Assembly (NCBI GenBank): GCA_043822065.1
Contig: JBDRCC010000010.1
Coordinates: forward strand, 1 to 12,088
Direction: 5' to 3'
DNA from: an archaeon
GTDB lineage: Archaea; Undinarchaeota; CAZHTU01; JBDRCC01
Length of the DNA: 12,088 bases
Within the stretch, counting starts at the first letter, position 1. Every line of letters starts with the position of its first letter. Positions 2,136-12,088 of this stretch are shown here, one piece after another. Both the position numbers and the translations under genes were made by a program. The notes under the pieces were generated by a model that made no database searches, was not told where the DNA came from, and saw only the letters and a list, made by a program, of their open reading frames with translations.

Positions 2136-2208
2136 GGCTTGAATTTGGCGGATGGGGTTTATAATGGTTTCAATTAGGTATATAAGATACTGGGGAGAAA
2201 TATCAAAT

Positions 2209-2901
2209 ATGCGCCACCCGACATTTGAGCAGATCATAGCGAAGTGCGACGAGCTTGTCCAGTACTCCATGGGCGTCTTCAGGGAGTACGGCCGGGGGGA
2301 GTTCGACAAGGGCCTGGCAAAGGTCTTCGACAAGAACGGCGCTGACCAGCTTTTCATGGACTTCCACAAAAAGGCGGAGGTGCTTATAGAACGCATCGTG
2401 ACAGGGAACGACGAACTCAGCGGCGCGGCAGAGGCGCTTGGGATGCTGAACAAGTCAGAGGACGACTACAACCTGATGATTTACGCAACAGTCACGCTCT
2501 CTGGAATCCTGCTGGGCATAAACGACTTTGGCCTGAAGAGGGCTGCAAAGGGCTTCAGCGGGGACAAGATGACCGTGATAGCGCACATGGGCTGGCAGGT
2601 TTATTCCGCCGCAGAGGAGCTGTTCGGGACACTAAAGGACTGCATGGCGCAGTTCGACATCAAGTTCGATGCCGAAGAGGCAGCCCCGGTGCCGGAGGGA
2701 GACGTGCCAAAGGGCGCAGACAGGAAGCTCTGGAAAAAGATTGAAGACGCCAGGGCAGGCGAGGTTCTCAAGTGCCCGTACAACCCCGAGCACAGCATAA
2801 TCGCAGGCTACAGCTTCTGCCCGCACTGCTCGAAGCGCGACGGAAAGAAAAAGGACTGGGTAATTGTGGAGCTGCCGAAACCGAAGAAGCGGAGAAGGTA
2901 G
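2209..2901 (+). CDS. Hypothetical protein, 230 aa, with a C-terminal Zn-finger-like CPYNPEH-x8-CPHC motif and a polybasic tail
   Basis: Long ORF with GC-rich third codon positions. Start re-assigned to ATG 2209 because TATATAA at 2179-2185 lies 23 nt upstream. Ends LPKPKKRRR. Confidence 0.75.
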   Translation: MRHPTFEQIIAKCDELVQYSMGVFREYGRGEFDKGLAKVFDKNGADQLFMDFHKKAEVLIERIVTGNDELSGAAEALGMLNKSEDDYNLMIYATVTLSGILLGINDFGLKRAAKGFSGDKMTVIAHMGWQVYSAAEELFGTLKDCMAQFDIKFDAEEAAPVPEGDVPKGADRKLWKKIEDARAGEVLKCPYNPEHSIIAGYSFCPHCSKRDGKKKDWVIVELPKPKKRRR

Positions 2902-3462: not shown

Positions 3463-3491
3463 TGTTCGCCTAATTCAGAATTATGGAAGAT
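3463..3491. other. dif-like / Xer-binding-site-like sequence overlapping the xerA start codon
   Basis: TGTTCGCCTAA-TTCAGAA-TTATGGAAGAT. Each 11-bp arm matches the corresponding E. coli dif arm (GGTGCGCATAA / TTATGTTAAAT) at 8/11 positions. The spacer is 7 bp, and the inner TAATTC-A-GAATTA is a perfect inverted repeat. Confidence 0.4.
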
Positions 3492-4370
3492 GACAACTGG
3501 TCGAATGCATTCGCTGAGCCGCTGAAACAGGAAAAAAAGGAGGCGCGGCCTGACGACCGCGTGGAGGCGTTCAGGCGCTCGCTCGTGATTGCAAACCGCA
3601 GCGAGAGGACGATTTCAAACTACATGATGTTCGTCCGAGACTTCTTCAAGTCGGTGAGGAAGGAGCCGCGGCGCGTGACGCAGGAAGACATTGAGTATTA
3701 TCTCGTCGAGCTGAAGGAGAAGCGCGGGTACAAGCCTGCGAGCCTCGCGCTCGCGTTCTCAGTCATGCGGAGCTTCTTCGACGCGTTCATGAAGATGGAC
3801 CTGACGCGCGGGATGCAGGCGCCGAAAATCGGGAGGCGGCTGCCGACTGTCCTGACGCGCGAGGAAGTCATTGCGCTGACGGATTCGGCAGGGAGCCTGA
3901 GGAACAAAGCCGTGATTCAGACGCTCTACTGCGGGCTGAGGCTGTCCGAGTGCATAAGCCTGAAGAAAGACGACATAGACTTCGCCTCGCATAAGGTTTA
4001 CATCATGCACGGCAAGGGGGACAAGGGCAGGACGATGCGGCTTTCGCAGAAGGCTGCGGGCCTCATGAAAAAATACCTTGAGGCGAGGAAGGGCGGCAGC
4101 GATTACATTTTTTCCGGAACGGCAGGGGAAAGGCTCACATCCCGCGCGGTGCAGAAGATGGTGGCGCGCGCGGCAGTGAGGGCGGGGATAAGCAAGCGCG
4201 TAACGCCGCACAAGCTCAGGCATTCGTTCGCAACGCACCTGCTGGAGTCCGGGACGGACATAAGGTACATCCAGGCCCTGCTCGGGCATTCCGACCTGTC
4301 AACGACGCAGATTTACACCCACGTGAGCGACAGCCAGCTCGACAAGATAAGGCTGCCGGGGGACGAATGA
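3483..4370 (+). CDS. xerA: Site-specific tyrosine recombinase, XerA/XerD-like, 295 aa
   Basis: N-terminal SAM-like domain (RSERTISNY). Catalytic motifs GLRLSE, GKGDKGR, TPHKLRHSFATHLL and LLGH...STTQIY are intact. There is no integron-integrase insertion between YIF and the HxxR box. Confidence 0.9.
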   Translation: MEDDNWSNAFAEPLKQEKKEARPDDRVEAFRRSLVIANRSERTISNYMMFVRDFFKSVRKEPRRVTQEDIEYYLVELKEKRGYKPASLALAFSVMRSFFDAFMKMDLTRGMQAPKIGRRLPTVLTREEVIALTDSAGSLRNKAVIQTLYCGLRLSECISLKKDDIDFASHKVYIMHGKGDKGRTMRLSQKAAGLMKKYLEARKGGSDYIFSGTAGERLTSRAVQKMVARAAVRAGISKRVTPHKLRHSFATHLLESGTDIRYIQALLGHSDLSTTQIYTHVSDSQLDKIRLPGDE

Positions 4371-4514: not shown

Positions 4515-5030
4515 GTGATACCTGAATTAATCTATTTTGACGCCGCGGTCGTAGTCACCGGGATGCTTTACGGAGCCATCTGGAACGCGAACGTGATGAT
4601 GTTCTCGCTTTTTCTCGGGATATGCCTGCTTTCGAGGTACCCGAAGGTCGCGGTAGTCGACAGCTTCATAGTGATAGACCTCGTCGACTTTTTCACGCTC
4701 TACACGTACGCAACCCTCGGGACGGTATACGGGATGGCAATGCTCGTGCTCGGGTGCTGGCTCCCGCAGGCGTATTCCGTCGGCGAGTCGCCGATGGACA
4801 CGATAGACAGGATGGTCTCGCTCTTCTTTGCCCTCGGCGTTTTCGCAATCGCGCTGAAGCTCGGCGTGACGATGCTGATGGCGATAACAATCGGGATATT
4901 CGTCTCGATGATGCTCTGGGCGCTCGTGGCGGTGTTCATATTCCACGTGCCAGACCCGAGGTTCATCCTGATGGCGGTTGCCAAGCCGGTATTGTTCAAC
5001 AGGGTGCTGGCAATTATCGGGTGCTGCTAA
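4515..5030 (+). CDS. Polytopic membrane protein, 171 aa, possibly ECF S-component-like
   Basis: About 5-6 hydrophobic segments. IDLVDFFTLY...TLGTVYG recalls the S-component helix pattern. GTG start lies 21 nt after TTATATA. Confidence 0.7.
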   Translation: MIPELIYFDAAVVVTGMLYGAIWNANVMMFSLFLGICLLSRYPKVAVVDSFIVIDLVDFFTLYTYATLGTVYGMAMLVLGCWLPQAYSVGESPMDTIDRMVSLFFALGVFAIALKLGVTMLMAITIGIFVSMMLWALVAVFIFHVPDPRFILMAVAKPVLFNRVLAIIGCC

Positions 5031-5704
5031 GCTGTGGAGTGCATCTCGCACTCCTCCTTGAGCATTGGGTCGCTTATGCTCCCGCAGAGGGAGGGATTTG
5101 AATACGCTGTCGCGACGTTGCGGTAGCAGCTGTCGCGCTGTATGCCTTCGGGCACTATGGTGCAGAGCGCGTCCCTGCCGGTGTTTTCCGCAATCGCAGT
5201 ATAGCAAATCCCTCGCTCCTTGACGTCTGCGCAGGCGCCTGGCGCGTCGAACTTGATAGCGTAGTCGTAGAGGCAGGAGTTTTTCTCTATCCCAGTGAGG
5301 CGGTTGCACTCCGTGTAATCGAGCCTTGCCTCGGCACGCTCTCGGATGCATAGTGTGAACTTCTCGCCGTAGAGCCCAGCGCACGGGTCGGTGTATTTCT
5401 GGGTGAAAAGGCCGGCAAAGTCGGATGCCTCCATCCCCTCGAAGTAGTGGAGGCGGACAGAAGTGAGGACCACGAGGAAAATAATGAAAATCACGAGGTA
5501 GTGCATCGCCTCGACATAGAACGGCGCCTTGCCAGGCTTCTCGTGCGGCGCCCTCGGCTTGGCCTTTAGGTCAACCTCGGCCTGCTGGATGGCGTCGTCT
5601 ATCTGGCGCTCCCGGTATCCTGCCTTTTGGAGGGCGTTCCTGACCTGCGCCTCTGAATATCCGTCGTTTAATTCGCGCTCGACATACTCTAGAAGGGGGT
5701 CCAT
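5027..5704 (-). CDS. Single-pass membrane protein: N-terminal small helical domain, TM helix, Cys-pair repeats
   Basis: N-terminus LLEYVERELNDGYSEAQVRNALQKAGY...IDDA is a pattern common in DPANN hypothetical proteins. TM segment is YLVIFIIFLVVLTSV. It is followed by ~25-aa repeats of the type C..(I/L/V)......C(Y/L/I)...A, with 10 Cys in total. Confidence 0.85.
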   Translation of the reverse strand: MDPLLEYVERELNDGYSEAQVRNALQKAGYRERQIDDAIQQAEVDLKAKPRAPHEKPGKAPFYVEAMHYLVIFIIFLVVLTSVRLHYFEGMEASDFAGLFTQKYTDPCAGLYGEKFTLCIRERAEARLDYTECNRLTGIEKNSCLYDYAIKFDAPGACADVKERGICYTAIAENTGRDALCTIVPEGIQRDSCYRNVATAYSNPSLCGSISDPMLKEECEMHSTA

Positions 5705-5816: not shown

Positions 5817-6047
5817 ATGCGGGCAGTTTTACTAACACAGGATGGATGTGACAAGTGCGATTACGTAAAACAGTTCATACCGCCCGGCGCTGAGATTCAG
5901 GTTATGGATGCCAAGACCCCCGAGGGGATGGCAGAAGTCGCTTTCCACAAGCTGATGGGCTCCCACACCCCGGTCCTCATAATCGAGGACAGGGAAGTCG
6001 TGCAGGGCGCGCTTCAGATAAAGAAAAAGCTCCTGAACCTTCAGTAA
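5817..6047 (+). CDS. Small glutaredoxin/NrdH-like thioredoxin-fold protein, 76 aa
   Basis: CDKC active site and cis-Pro motif TPVLII. ATG 5817 is preferred because the TATA box (TTTATAT, 5778-5784) would place the transcription start downstream of the 5790 and 5799 starts. Confidence 0.85.
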   Translation: MRAVLLTQDGCDKCDYVKQFIPPGAEIQVMDAKTPEGMAEVAFHKLMGSHTPVLIIEDREVVQGALQIKKKLLNLQ

Positions 6048-6658
6048 AAGAGCAGTGCGGATGGGCAGAGTTTTCGGATAGGGCAATCTGGACATTTAGG
6101 CCTGGCTGGCCTGCACGTGTCCTGGCCGAAAGCCACGAGGGTGGAGTTCACTGACCGCCACTGCCTTTTTGGGATTAATTTTTCGAGCGCCATTTCGGTC
6201 TGCTCAGGCGTTTTCGTGCGCACCCAGCCGAGCCGGTTTGAAATCCTGTGCACGTGCGTGTCCACCGCAATCGCCTGCATGCCGAACCCGTACGAAAGGA
6301 CGCAGTTTGCAGTCTTCCTCCCCACGCCGGGGAGCTCCAGAAGGGATTCCATGGAGTCAGGCACGCCGTGCCTTGAGGCGTATTCGGAGACTGCCTTGAT
6401 TTTCGGGGCTTTTGTCCTGTAGAATCCTGCCGGGTAAATCAGCTTTGCAATGTCGGATTCCTTGGCGGCGGCGAGCTTTTTTGCGGAGGGGAACTTTTTG
6501 AAAAGCCGCTCCGACGCTGCGATTGTAACCTCGTCCTTCGTGCGCTGGGAGATTATCGTCGAGATGAGGACTTCGAACGGGCCCTCGGCATAGTCAAGTG
6601 CAAGCTTTTTCCTGTACTTTTTTTTGAGAATGGAAAGCGCCTTTGGGATGTCCGGCAT
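6041..6658 (-). CDS. nth: Endonuclease III (HhH-GPD DNA glycosylase/AP lyase with a 4Fe-4S cluster)
   Basis: Motifs PFEVLISTIISQRTKD, HhH LPGVGRKTAN, VDTHV and C-x6-C-x2-C-x5-C (CRPARPKCPDCPIRKLC). Confidence 0.95.
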   Translation of the reverse strand: MPDIPKALSILKKKYRKKLALDYAEGPFEVLISTIISQRTKDEVTIAASERLFKKFPSAKKLAAAKESDIAKLIYPAGFYRTKAPKIKAVSEYASRHGVPDSMESLLELPGVGRKTANCVLSYGFGMQAIAVDTHVHRISNRLGWVRTKTPEQTEMALEKLIPKRQWRSVNSTLVAFGQDTCRPARPKCPDCPIRKLCPSALLFY

Positions 6659-7281
6659 CAGTACCCGAGCTCTTTGTCAATCAGGATGACGGTTATCCTG
6701 CCCTTCTCGCGCGAGTTGTGTATTATCAGCGAGGCGTTGCACTGGCGGTGGGGCGCGGCGCAGTCAGCGCACTTGCCGGAATGGCAGGGGAGGTCGTCCC
6801 AGCCGTGGCGGCGCGCGTTCTTCGGCGCGGCGACTGACTTAATCCGCTCGAAAGCCGCCGGCACGTCCTTGACTATCTTGTTCGTGCCTGCGACGAGTAT
6901 CACCTTCTTCGGGCCGTAAGCCATCGCGGCTATGCGGTTCCCGGTGCCGTCGGTGTTGACGAGGTAGCCGTCCTCGGTGATTGAGTTCGTGCCTGTGAGG
7001 AAGTATTCGGCTGTGAGCCCGTCCCGCCTGATAACCGGCTGGTTCTTGGTCTTGTCAATCTTCCCTTCGGCGGTGTACGGATTGAACGCCTTTCCCCTTT
7101 TCTCAAGCTCAGGGACGACGCCGGTCTGCGCGACAGTCATCGAGCCGCCGAGCCCGACGGACGCGCCTTCGGGTATGAGCTCGAGGATTTTCGCCTTTGC
7201 CTCTGCCTCGCCCTTCACGGGGATGCAGCCAATGCCGTGGCGCTTGAGGCTTTCGACTGTTTTGAGTATTCTGGGCTCCAT
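6658..7281 (-). CDS. LUD-domain (lactate utilization LutC/YkgG-like) protein, 207 aa
   Basis: Motifs VGLGGSMT, TGTNSITEDG.LVNTDGTGNRIAA, GP.KVILVAGTNKIV and PC...KCADC..P.RQC. Start re-assigned to ATG 7281 (TTATAA at 7304-7309, 22 nt upstream). The stop overlaps the nth start (TGATG). Confidence 0.9.
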   Translation of the reverse strand: MEPRILKTVESLKRHGIGCIPVKGEAEAKAKILELIPEGASVGLGGSMTVAQTGVVPELEKRGKAFNPYTAEGKIDKTKNQPVIRRDGLTAEYFLTGTNSITEDGYLVNTDGTGNRIAAMAYGPKKVILVAGTNKIVKDVPAAFERIKSVAAPKNARRHGWDDLPCHSGKCADCAAPHRQCNASLIIHNSREKGRITVILIDKELGY

Positions 7282-7372
7282 GCCGGAATTATTTTTTCCA
7301 GGCTTATAAGGTTCTCGGAAATGCACGCCGCCGGCAAAACCTTTTTAATTCTCGGCTGAATAATAAACGGCG

Positions 7373-7822
7373 ATGCCTGAAAGGAAGAGGATTGGGGTTG
7401 ACGAGTATTTCATGAAAATCGCACGCGTAGTCAGCGAAAGGTCCACCTGCCTGCCCCACCGGTCGCTTGTCGGCGCGGTGATGGTCAGGGACAAGAGGAT
7501 TCTTGCAACTGGGTACAACGGCCCGCCGCACGGCTACCCGCACTGCAAGACCTGCCTGCGGGACGACAGCGTGAAGGGCGAGAACATGGAGCTGTGCCCA
7601 GCGGTCCACGCCGAGCAGAACGCGATAATACACGCGGCGCTCCACGGCGTCTCGACGCACGACTCGACGCTCTACTGCACGCACTTCCCGTGCGTCTCCT
7701 GCCTGAGGATGCTGATTAATGCAGGAGTGAAAAGGGTCGTCTACGGGAAAGAGTATGACATGGAGAACCCTGTAAAGCGCGACCTCATCAAAAAGTGCAA
7801 GCTCCAGGTTTCTAAGTTCTGA
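7373..7822 (+). CDS. dCMP deaminase (ComEB-like Zn-dependent deaminase)
   Basis: Motifs YFMKIA..VSERSTC, ATGYNG, HAEQNAI and PCVSC. TATA TTTTTAA at 7342-7348 lies 24 nt upstream. Confidence 0.92.
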   Translation: MPERKRIGVDEYFMKIARVVSERSTCLPHRSLVGAVMVRDKRILATGYNGPPHGYPHCKTCLRDDSVKGENMELCPAVHAEQNAIIHAALHGVSTHDSTLYCTHFPCVSCLRMLINAGVKRVVYGKEYDMENPVKRDLIKKCKLQVSKF

Positions 7823-8325: not shown

Positions 8326-9126
8326 ATGAAATTGTGGGTTGTGTTTTCGATAATGCTTCTGGCCGCGGCCGGCTTCGCAGAGAAGCCGAGCGTGGTGCTG
8401 GTGTCAAACAGCATAGACTATCCAATGAGCGGGGTCCCGGGATTCCTGAACGGCAAGGGGCTCGAGGTTACGAAGATAGGCGCGGCAGACTTTGAGGCTT
8501 ACAAGAACACCAATTTCGTAGTGATTCTAGGCGGGCCTGACGCCCCGGACGGCATAGGCGAGCTCGTAACGTTCGCGCTCACGACCGACGAAGAGGGCTC
8601 CCTCAGGGCTGGCGGAAACGCGAAGATGTACGTCAAGACAAACGTCTGGAGGACGCCGCAGGTCGTCATGATAATCGCAGGGAGCGACAGGCAAGCGACG
8701 AAGCGCGCCGGAGACGACAATGGGAACGGCGTGGTCGAGAGGGTGCGCGCGGAGCACTTTAACGTCGCGATAATAGGCGCCGAGACCGGAACAGGCAAGG
8801 ACATGGTCTGGGACATGTATGACATCGAGCGCCTGACTGCGTTCACGAGACCGCTGTACGGGAAGTCATGGAAGCAGAACTGGGATGCGGCAATAGGCCA
8901 GGACAATGTCGAGGGCAAGCTCATATCCGACACCGGAGAGGTCATGCTGGAGGTGTTCGACGCGTCTGCGTACGACAGCAACCTGACATACCACGTGACC
9001 TTCAGGAAGCCTGCCACCGTCCCGAAAACATTCTGCAACGGCAACGTCACCCTCTGGGTAAGGATGAAATACCAGGGAGAAATGGACGAGGCTGAGCTCG
9101 GCGGGATAAAGCTAGAGAACTGCTAA
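8326..9126 (+). CDS. Secreted cell-surface protein with an S-layer C-terminal-like domain (GGP...AGSDR..T) and a second beta-rich domain
   Basis: Signal peptide MKLWVVFSIMLLAAAGFA, then VVLVSNSID, VVILGGPDA and VMIIAGSDRQAT, motifs seen in archaeal S-layer-associated domains. SD-like GGTGG at 8316-8320. Confidence 0.75.
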   Translation: MKLWVVFSIMLLAAAGFAEKPSVVLVSNSIDYPMSGVPGFLNGKGLEVTKIGAADFEAYKNTNFVVILGGPDAPDGIGELVTFALTTDEEGSLRAGGNAKMYVKTNVWRTPQVVMIIAGSDRQATKRAGDDNGNGVVERVRAEHFNVAIIGAETGTGKDMVWDMYDIERLTAFTRPLYGKSWKQNWDAAIGQDNVEGKLISDTGEVMLEVFDASAYDSNLTYHVTFRKPATVPKTFCNGNVTLWVRMKYQGEMDEAELGGIKLENC

Positions 9127-9533
9127 GCCTTCTGCGCCTTGAAGACTGTCGAAAGGTGGATTATGTAGGTCTCCCCTTTTTGGAGGACTATTACAGGCGC
9201 GCCGTTGAGGAGCGCTTCGATGTTTATCTCGTAGACCCCTGGCGTTAGCGTCTTGACAGTCTCGACGCCGAAAAGCTTCGGTTTTGCATGGGGCTTTTTC
9301 GCAGGCGCGTATGGGACTAGCGCCGGGGCTGAAGCCGCAGCCTTCTTCTCAAGAATTTTGGTCTCCAGCGTCTCCAGCTCCTCGAGGGTGACGCGGTCCA
9401 GGACTTTTGCCGCGGCCGCCTTGTCCTCCTCCTTCAGGAAGACGAAGAACTTGCTCCCGCAGGCGCACCCAGAGATTATCGGGACGTCCTCCTCCTTATC
9501 ATAAACCTTGCCGCATCTCAGGCACTTGTGCAT
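9123..9533 (-). CDS. oapC: OapC / DUF2072 zinc-ribbon protein
   Basis: N-terminal HKCLRCGKVY...GC.CGSKFF and C-terminal VETVK...PGVYEINIEALL....VI....G.Y.I.L. It is the third gene of the GTPase-DUF2073-DUF2072 operon, with a TAATG overlap to oapB. Confidence 0.88.
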   Translation of the reverse strand: MHKCLRCGKVYDKEEDVPIISGCACGSKFFVFLKEEDKAAAAKVLDRVTLEELETLETKILEKKAAASAPALVPYAPAKKPHAKPKLFGVETVKTLTPGVYEINIEALLNGAPVIVLQKGETYIIHLSTVFKAQKA

Positions 9534-9946
9534 TATACCTCTGCCGTGATGTGGAATGAGTCGGGGTCGCGCTTGACCCTCTTGACGATGCTTGACGGCC
9601 CGACGAGGGTCAGCCCGTTTTTGATTGTGACTATCTCCTTCCCGGTTATCTTTTTTGACAGCGAGGAGAGCCGTGCCAGGATGCTGTTAAGGATGTGGTC
9701 GAAGCCCTTCATCTCGCGCGGCAGGGTCGCGACCTCGATTCCTGCAAAGTCGCCCTTGACGTTGTGCAGGGTCGCCTCGACAAGCTTCAGCTCCTCTTCG
9801 GAGGAGAGGACGCCGTCCAGGACAATCATGTGCCCCTTCTTGACCGGGTTGAGGATGAAGTCAATCTTGCCCTCGATGTTTTTGTTTTTTATCGAGTCCA
9901 TGGAGAGGAAGTCAATGTCAATCTTGAAGCCTTTTTTCTTCGTCAT
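9533..9946 (-). CDS. oapB: OapB / DUF2073 protein
   Basis: Motifs KIDFIL..VKKG.MIVLDG.LS.EEE.KLVEAT, DFAGIEV and GLTLVGPS. ATGA overlap with oapA. Confidence 0.9.
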   Translation of the reverse strand: MTKKKGFKIDIDFLSMDSIKNKNIEGKIDFILNPVKKGHMIVLDGVLSSEEELKLVEATLHNVKGDFAGIEVATLPREMKGFDHILNSILARLSSLSKKITGKEIVTIKNGLTLVGPSSIVKRVKRDPDSFHITAEV

Positions 9947-12088
9947 CTCTTCCTCCTCGGCCTTGGGTGCTCTGCGATTTTCTCGTACAGCTCGGTCAGG
10001 TTCTTGCCGTACTTCGCGGAAATCCCGACGACCGGGTGCTGGGGGAAAGCCTCTGAAATCGCCCTGAGGTTGGCTTTCGGCAGGTCGGTCTTGTTCGCGG
10101 CGATGACGATTGGTATCCGCTTCGCCTCAAGCTGGCCTATGAGCATTATGTTCACCTGGGTGAGCGGGTCCTTGGTCGCGTCCATCATGATGATCGTGGT
10201 GTCGACGTTGTCCAGGAATTTTATCGCCTCGATGATGCCTTCCGTCGCCTGTTTCGCCCTGTCCTTCGACTCGATGACGGTGAACTTCCTGCCCTTCTTC
10301 GGCTTCGGCAGGGTTATCCTGAGCCTGCCCATTATCCCTTCGGCTTCCTCCTTTGAGAGCTCGGTTGCGAGAATCCGCTTGAGCTCGTTCTTGGAAGCGG
10401 CTGCGCTGACCTCAATCCCCTGGTCCTTTGCGATTCTCTTCAGCTGGGTGACCTTGAGCCTGCCGAGGAGCTCGTCCTTCGTCCTCGGGCGCTCGTCCTT
10501 CTTGAACCTCAAAAAGTCGCGGTAGTCCACCTTGGTCGCAAGCCCTGGCATGTCGAGCAGGTTCATGATGAGCGTCTTGTTCCCGACCTTGACCTCGACG
10601 TGCTCCTTCTTCTGAATGACCCTGGTCTCGTGCGGGATTTCAGAGACCGTGCCGACCTCCTCGCCGAGCCAGTCGAGCGAGATGCGGTTGGCAAGGGAGG
10701 TGTTGTGGACGACCAGCCCGTCCCAGGTGGAGAATGTGTGGTTGCCCTCCACAGTCAAGTCATATATGTACCCATCGTACTCAATTTCCCTGATTTTTGC
10801 GACTGGGTCCCACATCACGTCCGCTTGTGCTATCCGGTGGATTGCCTCAGTGTTTGGATTGCGGGGTAGCGCCCTGCTCATCCTGACCAGCTTGTCGACG
10901 GCTATCCTGTTTTTCCGCTCCATCCTTGCGATGTGCTGGTGCTCCATGTAGAATTTTGTCCGGCTCATGCCCTCTTTTTTCCTTGCCTCTTCAAGCAGAG
11001 GCATGGCGGGGACTACGTGGATGTTCGCCTTTGAGCCATGGCCGCAAATCTCAGCGAGGGCCTTGTTTTTTTCAGGAAGGGAAAACCCTATGTTCTCCCT
11101 GAAAATCCTGTGGTTTCTGCTCCTCCCTATGAACAAGCGGTAGTAAGTCTTGCCATCGACCTTTTTTTCTGCTATCTTTCCGACAATTCCAAACCTCAAG
11201 AGAAGGAGCTGTATCCCAACCAAAAGCTCCTTGCTCGCACTGGGAAATTCTATGCAGGAATGGGTTCGGTCGCTTGAAACGCTCGCCTCACAGTCGAAGA
11301 GCGTCCGCAGGAATCCTGACACAACTTCGTCATCCTCTTTCAGGATTGGGGCAGGTACCCTTTTGTACCTTGAATTGGCTGGCTCCAGGTCATAAACCTC
11401 TTTCAGGAATTCGACGAGGACCTTGGAGTTCAACATCACCGTTGGCGTCTTGCCTTCCCGCAGGTTGAGCTTTGTCTCAACGCCGAAAGCCTCTTCCGAA
11501 ATGCTTGCAAAGTCATTCAGCATCTGCGAGTCCTGGTTTGTGAAGTAGATGTGGTTTCCGCCGTGGTGCGACTCTGCTATGGTGTACGCCATGAACCTCG
11601 ACAGCTCCGGCGTTATCGTTTCAATCGGCAGGATTGGTTTTGGATGGTGGTACTTCATCTCAAGGGAAACGGACCCGCCGTCTGTTATAAACCGCTTGGG
11701 GAGTGCGTATGAGAATTTCTCCCTTAGGGGGTTAAAGCTGGAGAGAAGGGCGGCATAAGTGCCCGGCACGAGGTCCTTCGCCTTTACCTCCGTGACGCCG
11801 CCATCAGCCATGCAGATGAACGGATGCTCCGGCGACACCTTGACGCGCCTGCCCAATGCTGTCTCGACCTCATAAAGCAGTCCTTTGTACCTCTGCCGGT
11901 AGACGTGCGAAAGCCTCTTGTGCTCTACTTTGAGCGTCTTTTTGTTCAGGGAGGGCACTTTAATGTCCAGATTGGAGCAGCCAATCAGCGCTTCGTTTTC
12001 ATCCGGCCTGACCACCCTGCTCCTAACAACTTCTTCAAAAATTGACTCTATGTTTTTGTAAAGCCCGTCTGAGAGGAGTATTTTTTCT
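9943..12088 (-). CDS. oapA: OapA Era-like GTPase precursor containing an intein; 5' end lies outside the window
   Basis: The frame is open to the window edge (EKILLSDGLYKNIESIFEEV...). The C-extein (9943-10701, 252 aa) reads TSLANRI...SEIPHETR (G2), DMPG (G3), RAKQATEGIIEAI, DP.TQVN, NKTD (G4) and ISAK (G5). It lies upstream of oapB and oapC. Confidence 0.92.
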   Translation of the reverse strand, partial: EKILLSDGLYKNIESIFEEVVRSRVVRPDENEALIGCSNLDIKVPSLNKKTLKVEHKRLSHVYRQRYKGLLYEVETALGRRVKVSPEHPFICMADGGVTEVKAKDLVPGTYAALLSSFNPLREKFSYALPKRFITDGGSVSLEMKYHHPKPILPIETITPELSRFMAYTIAESHHGGNHIYFTNQDSQMLNDFASISEEAFGVETKLNLREGKTPTVMLNSKVLVEFLKEVYDLEPANSRYKRVPAPILKEDDEVVSGFLRTLFDCEASVSSDRTHSCIEFPSASKELLVGIQLLLLRFGIVGKIAEKKVDGKTYYRLFIGRSRNHRIFRENIGFSLPEKNKALAEICGHGSKANIHVVPAMPLLEEARKKEGMSRTKFYMEHQHIARMERKNRIAVDKLVRMSRALPRNPNTEAIHRIAQADVMWDPVAKIREIEYDGYIYDLTVEGNHTFSTWDGLVVHNTSLANRISLDWLGEEVGTVSEIPHETRVIQKKEHVEVKVGNKTLIMNLLDMPGLATKVDYRDFLRFKKDERPRTKDELLGRLKVTQLKRIAKDQGIEVSAAASKNELKRILATELSKEEAEGIMGRLRITLPKPKKGRKFTVIESKDRAKQATEGIIEAIKFLDNVDTTIIMMDATKDPLTQVNIMLIGQLEAKRIPIVIAANKTDLPKANLRAISEAFPQHPVVGISAKYGKNLTELYEKIAEHPRPRRKR
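10702..12088 (-). mobile_element. Intein with a LAGLIDADG homing-endonuclease domain, inserted in the oapA Walker A motif (N-terminus just beyond the window)
   Basis: Block A tail EKILLSDG, block B VKVSPEHPF, LAGLIDADG-like blocks FMAYTIAES and FLRTLFDCEAS, block H LLLLRFGI, block F YIYDLTVEGNHTF and block G VVHN, followed by +1 Thr (ACC at 10699-10701). Confidence 0.93.

Follow-up and report, generated by a model that had tools for sequence, protein, structure and literature searches.

In Undinarchaeota, the small GTPase ArvA, also known as OapA, carries a lineage-specific insert that by its sequence is a SAP-type module, and that is placed by structure prediction within the switch II loop of the catalytic G domain, where it may serve as a tether for nucleic acid. 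The insert was studied in contig JBDRCC010000010.1 of the archaeal assembly GCA_043822065.1 (Undinarchaeota; CAZHTU01; JBDRCC01). The window referred to below is this entire contig of 12,088 bases, from a source genome of 1.03 Mb in 22 contigs that is 82% complete. Coordinates are those of the window, and features lie on the minus strand unless indicated otherwise.

The arvA gene and its insert

A minus-strand open frame spans the window from the contig end (12087) down to 9943. The part of it downstream of an intein, the C-extein (P0001; 9946..10701, 252 aa; stop codon at 9943-9945), comprises the G domain from the last Thr of the P-loop to the C-terminus, insert included, and gave Pfam matches to GTP_EFTU and MMR_HSR1. 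The gene was assigned to oapA because Pfam OapB and OapC are matched by the next two genes downstream. These are arvB/oapB (9533..9946), encoding a 137-aa protein of the DUF2073 type (PF09846, 1.8e-16), and arvC/oapC (9123..9533), encoding a 136-aa zinc ribbon protein (DUF2072; PF09845, 7e-19). A search of 5.8 billion proteins with the C-extein returned 2188 homologues at E<=1e-3, among them DPANN and Methanobacteriota proteins, and the best 120 were listed; the best homologue is annotated as GTPase [Candidatus Undinarchaeota archaeon] and shares 77% identity with P0001. Judged from gene context and these homologues, the window gene is arvA (oapA) of the oapABC cluster, and arvB and arvC were found directly downstream of arvA in 13/13 same-phylum loci. 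The DMPG motif at 10543..10554, with invariant D-M-P-G columns in the homologue alignments, is the G3 motif and marks the start of switch II. The G4 motif NKTD is located at 10084..10095 (N, K, and D columns invariant), and the G5 motif SAK likewise falls in invariant columns. Only the final Thr of the P-loop (GxxNxGKT) lies in the window, after the intein, with the remainder past the contig end. A scan of NCBIfam yielded no match specific to the insert or to ArvA, and no solved ArvA structure was found by sequence search of the PDB, where the best match was Der (E 1.2e-4).

The initial annotation had described a segment of about 70 aa at 10285-10503 as an insert at a site where typical OapA proteins have only a short link. 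Minus-strand translation of these positions gave exactly the 73 residues proposed (C-extein residues 67-139), and the alignments bear out both statements. In the short homologues (~207-219 aa), DY..F.KY runs straight into GLS..EA..RA.EAT.G, and in homologues of ~210 aa from other archaeal phyla this position is empty. The window protein and 44 others (265-295 aa) have 71-79 extra residues at the site, over a 77-residue span that corresponds to P0001 residues 67-143 (10273..10503) and is flanked N-terminally by ...DMPGLATKVDYRDFLRF and C-terminally by FTVIESKDRAKQATEG. The pattern L..LKV.QLK.IAK...K.EL..IL, which had been placed at about 10366-10467, was located at ~10369-10467.

AlphaFold prediction of the 77-residue insert, supplied with an alignment of 14 inserts (A3), (model me4f44b8d6aaa; mean predicted local distance difference test score, pLDDT, of 78) gave helices at insert residues 9-15, 18-28, 38-48, and 51-60, followed by an unstructured basic tail. 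The first of these is a short leading helix (10459..10479). The predicted SAP/HeH core (10360..10452) consists of helix 18-28, an extended loop of nine residues, and helix 38-48 as assigned by DSSP, and Pfam HeH matches residues 16-43. The third main helix (10324..10353; KEEAEGIMGR) shows the conserved hydrophobic pattern h..hh..h.h, and the polybasic tail LRITLPKPKKGRK (10285..10323), with block-mean pLDDT of 54-73 and without secondary structure, forms the linker back into the G domain. The insert has a net charge of +10 and a pI (isoelectric point) of 10.3 in the window protein; among 45 proteins, the median charge is +11 (range 0 to +22) and the pI 10.1, with +4 for the remainder of the protein, and a median of eight Lys or Arg is found in the last 20 insert residues.

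The position of the module in the G domain was derived from a full-length close homologue, P0002 (77% identical), which was folded with 81 aligned sequences to a pLDDT of 87.6, the 10-residue blocks over the insert having mean values of 82-97. In this model, strand 76-84 is followed by DMPG, helix 94-97, the insert helices (109-114, 118-127, 138-148, and 151-160), helix 176-199, and strand 202-208. Because DMPG, the insert helices, and the long helix 176-199 follow each other in this order, the module is placed by the model between G3 and alpha2, within the switch II loop. The alignment gives the same position, in agreement with the earlier proposal that the insert adjoins switch II. In the window, helix alpha2 (ESKDRAKQATEGIIEAIKFL...) is encoded at 10207..10278, with an offset of 34 relative to helix 176-199 of P0002. 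Single bridge residues at 101 and 173 suggest that the two ends of the modeled module meet, as for an inserted domain. The whole P0002 model matches the G domains of Era, MnmE, Ras, Rab, and Arf.

Assignment of the insert to the SAP class

The orthologous inserts carry most of the evidence for the assignment. When 49 aligned members were searched against Pfam at E<=0.1, SAP was matched in 26 (best 3.8e-9), SAP_new25 in 11, Rho_N in nine, and HeH in eight; for Rho_N (PF07498) the best value was 6.2e-5, and the window copy gave no match to this family. Thirteen members were also checked singly. Seven, chosen for a prior SAP listing, scored above the SAP gathering threshold (27.6-36.4 bits); among the other six, three reached 16.9-22.8 bits for SAP, P0002 matched HeH only (16.5 bits), and two had no such match. 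A hidden Markov model (HMM) built from 29 inserts with the shorter loop described below, the window copy excluded, matches the window insert at E 2.4e-12, which argues that the SAP resemblance of the window stretch is not due to chance. The only other match of this HMM in the six-frame translation of the window was a 12-residue stretch (profile positions 56-67) in the intein part of the frame.

A profile of the insert only, made from alignment A3, was searched against 1.84 billion representative proteins. At E<=1e-3 it retrieved 186 of them, of which 16 had E<=1e-10, and many showed 3-10 tandem matches. For SAP-repeat proteins, values down to E 4.7e-16 were reached. Among the 30 best proteins, Pfam SAP is present at E<=1e-4 in 28; the other two are a truncated ArvA and a protein without a SAP match. 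Against PDB sequences at E<=10, the profile gave five matches with marginal E-values, all to SAP or SAP-like domains: Hcc-1 (2do1; 0.014, the best), MANF (two entries), the SAP domain of a rice SUMO E3 ligase (2rno), and E1B-AP5. In the window's own genome, Pfam SAP gave three matches only, of 11-12 bits, and the insert profile found no second copy of the insert at E<=1.

Two loop variants were observed among 45 inserts, 29 having the canonical length and 16, including that of the window, being two residues longer. A conserved glycine in the loop between the two helices is a feature of SAP domains, and this glycine occurs in 25 of the 29 inserts with the short loop versus one of the 16 with the long loop. 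By sequence, then, the insert is a SAP-type module, with which the fold evidence is consistent, and we class the window copy as divergent and belonging to a derived subgroup with a longer loop and without the SAP glycine. The Rho-N/SAP/HeH class proposed in the initial annotation is upheld by orthology, profile searches, and the predicted structure; this copy is, however, less classic than it was described there.

Fold comparisons of the predicted insert gave modest matches, mostly to SAP or Rho-N domains. The Foldseek list against the PDB was enriched for FAN1, MANF, Tho1, SIZ1, and Rho entries, and structural matches were also obtained to the SAP domains of MANF and CDNF bound to BiP. The matches of an exhaustive VIA search lie at Z 4-6, in a range below 8 that can reflect a common helical arrangement, and were headed by reverse gyrase and FAN1 (both Z 6.0) and the PIAS1 N-terminal domain (Z 5.7). 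They were followed by the SF3B2 SAP domain (Z 4.9), the RNA-binding domain of Rho (Z 4.8; root-mean-square deviation, rmsd, of 1.8 over 44 residues), T4 endonuclease VII (4.8), the SAP domains of E1B-AP5 (Z 4.3) and Hcc-1 (Z 4.2; rmsd 1.7 over 44), and LEM (3.5), and death-fold helical bundles score similarly. The helix-extended loop-helix that the initial annotation expected was thus predicted by AlphaFold, and a Foldseek match at E<=1e-3 was not obtained.

Distribution and evolution of the insert

The insert is confined to Undinarchaeota, where it was identified in 14 of the 17 genomes of the collection (the window's included), versus none of 12 ArvA-bearing genomes outside the phylum; as had been predicted, the segment is absent from most OapA proteins. 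Among the best 120 homologues, the first 44 (265-295 aa) cover 96-100% of the query, and the named ones belong to Candidatus Undinarchaeota, are of the Naiadarchaeales type, or are given as 'archaeon'; Naiadarchaeales is an order of Undinarchaeota. The other 76 are 186-231 aa long, the named ones coming from Aenigmatarchaeota, Micrarchaeia, Altiarchaeales, and Methanobacteriota. Coverage of the query is 37-46% for 74 of these and 98% for P0065 and P0108, both of which nevertheless lack the insert when aligned. At the genome level, the C-extein matched contiguously across the insert in 13 same-phylum genomes, and in two pieces (residues 1-66/71 and 140/144-243/248) in 12/12 ArvA-bearing genomes from outside the phylum. 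Of the further out-of-phylum genomes, 11 gave no match to the C-extein and one a weak match. As to the three Undinarchaeota genomes that do not add to the count, arvA of G016 is cut by a contig end just ahead of the insert, and the C-extein query found no arvA in G001 or G003, whose completeness is 79% and 91%. In the phylum, all complete arvA genes seen (14 genomes; 45 proteins) keep the insert, at 71-79 residues.

A maximum-likelihood tree was calculated from 81 proteins, the insert columns being removed. The set comprised 44 proteins with the insert, P0101, and 36 insert-less proteins picked from the listed short ones. All 45 carriers fall on one side of a branch with a support of 98 (SH-aLRT, the Shimodaira-Hasegawa-like approximate likelihood ratio test), and a single change is required. 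Tree and alignments indicate that the module was inserted once, in the Undinarchaeota lineage. P0101 (231 aa) has about 24 residues left at the site, ending in a lysine-rich stretch, and the SAP core is gone. It is nested deep among the insert carriers, and its state is therefore read as a secondary loss of the core. P0101 is known from a single contig of 1,655 bases, and an assembly artefact is possible.

Functional interpretation and alternatives

The initial annotation had referred to the function of OapABC as still unclear, which is outdated. OapA has been renamed ArvA; its knockout in Haloferax volcanii abolishes the RNA-carrying extracellular vesicles whose formation it drives, and its overexpression leads to hypervesiculation. 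The same study gives a 3.1-fold decrease in vesicle output for the arvB knockout and a 1.65-fold increase for the arvC knockout, and proposes an N-terminal amphipathic helix of ArvA as the membrane binder (PMC10927574).

The interpretation that we favor, with about even confidence, is that the insert is a polyanion tether on a membrane GTPase, most likely for nucleic acid, with an exposure that depends on switch II. In this scheme, the N-terminal helix of ArvA would bind the membrane and the insert nucleic acid; with the module attached to switch II, the GTP/GDP state would affect where it lies or how available it is. A plausible role would be to bring nucleic-acid cargo to budding vesicles. 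The presence of a SAP-type module suggests, and does not prove, DNA or RNA binding, and the coupling to the nucleotide state is likewise suggested by the location of the module. Going further, Undinarchaeota ArvA might be a self-contained GTP-gated cargo adaptor, in which the GTP state exposes the SAP module and tail and captures DNA or RNA at the budding site, so that in these genome-reduced DPANN archaea nucleic acid is packaged in vesicles, or the chromosome is tethered to the membrane, without a separate adaptor protein; this extended scheme we consider speculative and unlikely.

Several observations weigh against a nucleic-acid tether. By itself, the window copy does not reach the Pfam cut-offs, scoring 11.3 bits (E 0.4) against SAP (PF02037; gathering cut-off 23.9), and against HeH (PF12949; cut-off 28.9) 19.1 bits when searched alone and 16.1 bits as part of the C-extein. 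Its loop, KDQGIEVSAAAS, has no Gly just before the conserved Lys. The structural comparisons yielded no Foldseek match to the PDB at E<=1e-3, all values being >=1.5, and the VIA scores remain in the nonspecific range given above. The insert also diverges fast, with a median pairwise identity of 0.31 versus 0.69 for the core (946 pairs), and the loss in P0101 means that the SAP core may be dispensable. SAP-like domains can have protein ligands, the MANF/CDNF-BiP structures being examples, and the computed evidence would fit DNA, RNA, acidic lipid, and protein as ligand alike. Finally, the vesicle role of ArvA has been demonstrated only in haloarchaea, namely in H. volcanii (PMC10927574).

The main rival to the nucleic-acid tether is a regulatory or membrane-binding element. 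Here, the basic tail and helices would bind acidic lipids, or the SAP-like fold would dock a protein partner (ArvB, ArvC, or another ArvA), with the insert modulating switch II and the GTPase cycle directly. Such a role would agree with the lysine- and arginine-rich tail (median of eight such residues in the last 20), with the occurrence of the SAP-like MANF/CDNF domains bound to the BiP ATPase among the structural matches, with the retention in P0101 of some 24 residues ending in a basic stretch in the absence of the SAP core, and with the presence of SAP-like modules on proteins of the phylum that are predicted to be membrane proteins (L054, L055, and L056). However, nucleic-acid-binding SAP or Rho-N domains make up most of the best matches by sequence and by fold, the same type of module is fused to RNA polymerase subunit H, and the hydrophobic core of the SAP fold is conserved throughout the phylum, which would be needless for a purely electrostatic membrane patch. 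We rate this explanation as possible and somewhat unlikely.

Less likely than this are two further explanations. The insert could be a tolerated decoration of the lineage that does little by itself and belongs to several SAP-like modules spread in the phylum. Its fast divergence, the loss of the core in one homologue, the similar modules on unrelated proteins of the phylum, and the variable loop length (29 short and 16 long in 45) can all be read in this way. Against it stand the retention of the insert in every complete arvA of the phylum, a helical hydrophobic pattern that is conserved despite the divergence, and the confident prediction of the module in the full-length model (block-mean pLDDT 82-97); moreover, a neutral insertion of 75 aa in switch II is unlikely to be harmless. 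We regard a mere decoration as quite improbable. It seems extremely improbable that a lysine-rich helical linker resembles a SAP domain by chance: the subthreshold Pfam scores of the lone window copy, the Foldseek E-values, and the marginal PDB profile values (best 0.014) would be expected of such a linker, but not the 36.4 bits (E 3.8e-9) that orthologous inserts reach on Pfam SAP, the E 4.7e-16 of the insert-only profile on SAP-repeat proteins, or the homology of the window copy to the orthologous inserts at E 2.4e-12.

Comparison with known systems

The window protein resembles ArvA/OapA of H. volcanii (HVO_3014) in being a small single-domain GTPase with DMPG, NKTD, and SAK motifs and in having arvB and then arvC downstream, and its full-length close homologue has an N-terminal helix as in ArvA. 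ArvA homologues are widespread in DPANN and Euryarchaeota; Tables S12 and S13 of PMC10927574 list 1,666 of them, among which the longer, insert-bearing proteins may already figure. Unlike the H. volcanii protein, the window copy has both a SAP-type module of ~75 aa in the switch II loop and a P-loop intein; the terms 'insertion', 'Undinarchaeota', and 'intein' do not occur in the main text of PMC10927574. The haloarchaeal oapABC genes are origin-adjacent, whereas the sole orc1/cdc6 gene is located on another contig than arvABC in five of five relatives (G005, G007, G008, G010, and G011). The haloarchaeal 'origin-associated' context, and with it the origin-linked role that was considered, is therefore unsupported here.

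The predicted module shares the helix-extended loop-helix and the hydrophobic/basic pattern with SAP domains (PF02037) such as those of Hcc-1/SARNP (2do1), SF3B2 (2do5), PIAS1 (1v66), and the SAP subdomain of FAN1, on which it superimposes with an rmsd of 1.7-2.5 over 44-52 residues; solved SAP domains score Z 4.2-6.0, a range that is not decisive alone. SAP domains are usually terminal or in tandem, whereas the insert is placed inside a catalytic G domain and has flanking helices and a polybasic tail. The N-terminal helical subdomain of Rho (PF07498; 1a62) and HeH/LEM (PF12949) belong to the same fold class, but in contrast to Rho, no OB fold follows the module, the Rho_N and HeH matches are weaker than those to SAP, and LEM reaches a Z of only 3.5. 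As in Era and Der, a G domain is joined to a module of a nucleic-acid-binding type, and Era (3iev_A) is the best Foldseek match of the full-length model (E 4.9e-10). The KH-type RNA-binding domain of Era and Der has another fold and is C-terminal, and not in switch II.

To our knowledge, small GTPases with a domain inserted into switch II are rare. In the literature library searched, no paper was found with both Undinarchaeota and the SAP domain, and the papers listed for ArvA, extracellular vesicles, and archaea describe no such insert in their titles or abstracts. ArvA is the only archaeal GTPase so far shown to drive vesicle budding, and the vesicles of Haloferax carry selected RNA. A phylum-wide variant of ArvA with a domain of a nucleic-acid-binding type in switch II offers a testable link between GTPase state and the binding of cargo or chromosome, and the insert-bearing and insert-less ArvA proteins provide a natural with/without comparison for biochemistry.

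The P-loop intein

The N-terminal part of the open frame (10702..12087) encodes an intein with a LAGLIDADG homing-endonuclease domain (Intein_splicing 1.4e-26; LAGLIDADG_3 7e-23), inserted in the P-loop at GK|C...HN|T. Because the contig ends within the intein, its first few residues and the N-extein of ~35 aa are missing from the window, and a search of the rest of the assembly did not recover the N-extein. Four other ArvA proteins (663-683 aa) have an intein at the same site, all of them without the SAP insert; in the window ArvA, the P-loop intein and the SAP insert occur together.

Related modules and other genes

Several proteins of this DPANN phylum, RNA polymerase subunit H among them, have SAP-type modules attached. 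In G001, G002, and G003, a SAP-like module of ~55 aa forms the N-terminus of subunit H (Rpb5_C E 2.9e-26 to 4.1e-36; loci L053:1270-1674, L050:1255-1689, and L049:1252-1665, all on the minus strand). The G001 module scores 24.7 bits for SAP in the genome search, above the cut-off, and that of G002 (LKVTQLRELAK...) closely resembles the window insert. In the genome to which the window belongs (82% complete), no subunit H was found. A protein of ~166 aa with no other Pfam match has a C-terminal module that matches the insert profile at E 2.9e-12 and 9.1e-12 (L051:1180-1677 and L052:1180-1719, both on the plus strand). The loop of this module is longer by two residues, just like that of the ArvA insert in these genomes, a hint of domain duplication within the genome. 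SAP-like modules were also observed at the head of an AN1-zinc-finger/CAP protein and of a predicted membrane FKBP isomerase, and at the end of a lysine-rich 155-aa protein without Pfam match (L054:409-1629, L055:694-1623, L056:682-1611, and L057:1495-1959, all on the minus strand).

Two open reading frames in the remainder of the window have no clear Pfam family. One, of 249 aa (2152-2901, plus strand), ends in a zinc-ribbon-like CPxx...CPHC motif and a KPKKRRR tail; the other, of 225 aa (5027-5704, minus strand), combines a weakly RecX_HTH1-like N-terminus with a hydrophobic stretch and a C-terminal part rich in Cys. The ordinary housekeeping genes encode a tyrosine recombinase (3483-4370, plus strand; Phage_integrase 1.5e-45), an endonuclease III-type HhH-GPD glycosylase (6041-6658, minus strand), a LUD-domain protein (6658-7326, minus strand), and a dCMP/cytidine deaminase (7373-7822, plus strand).

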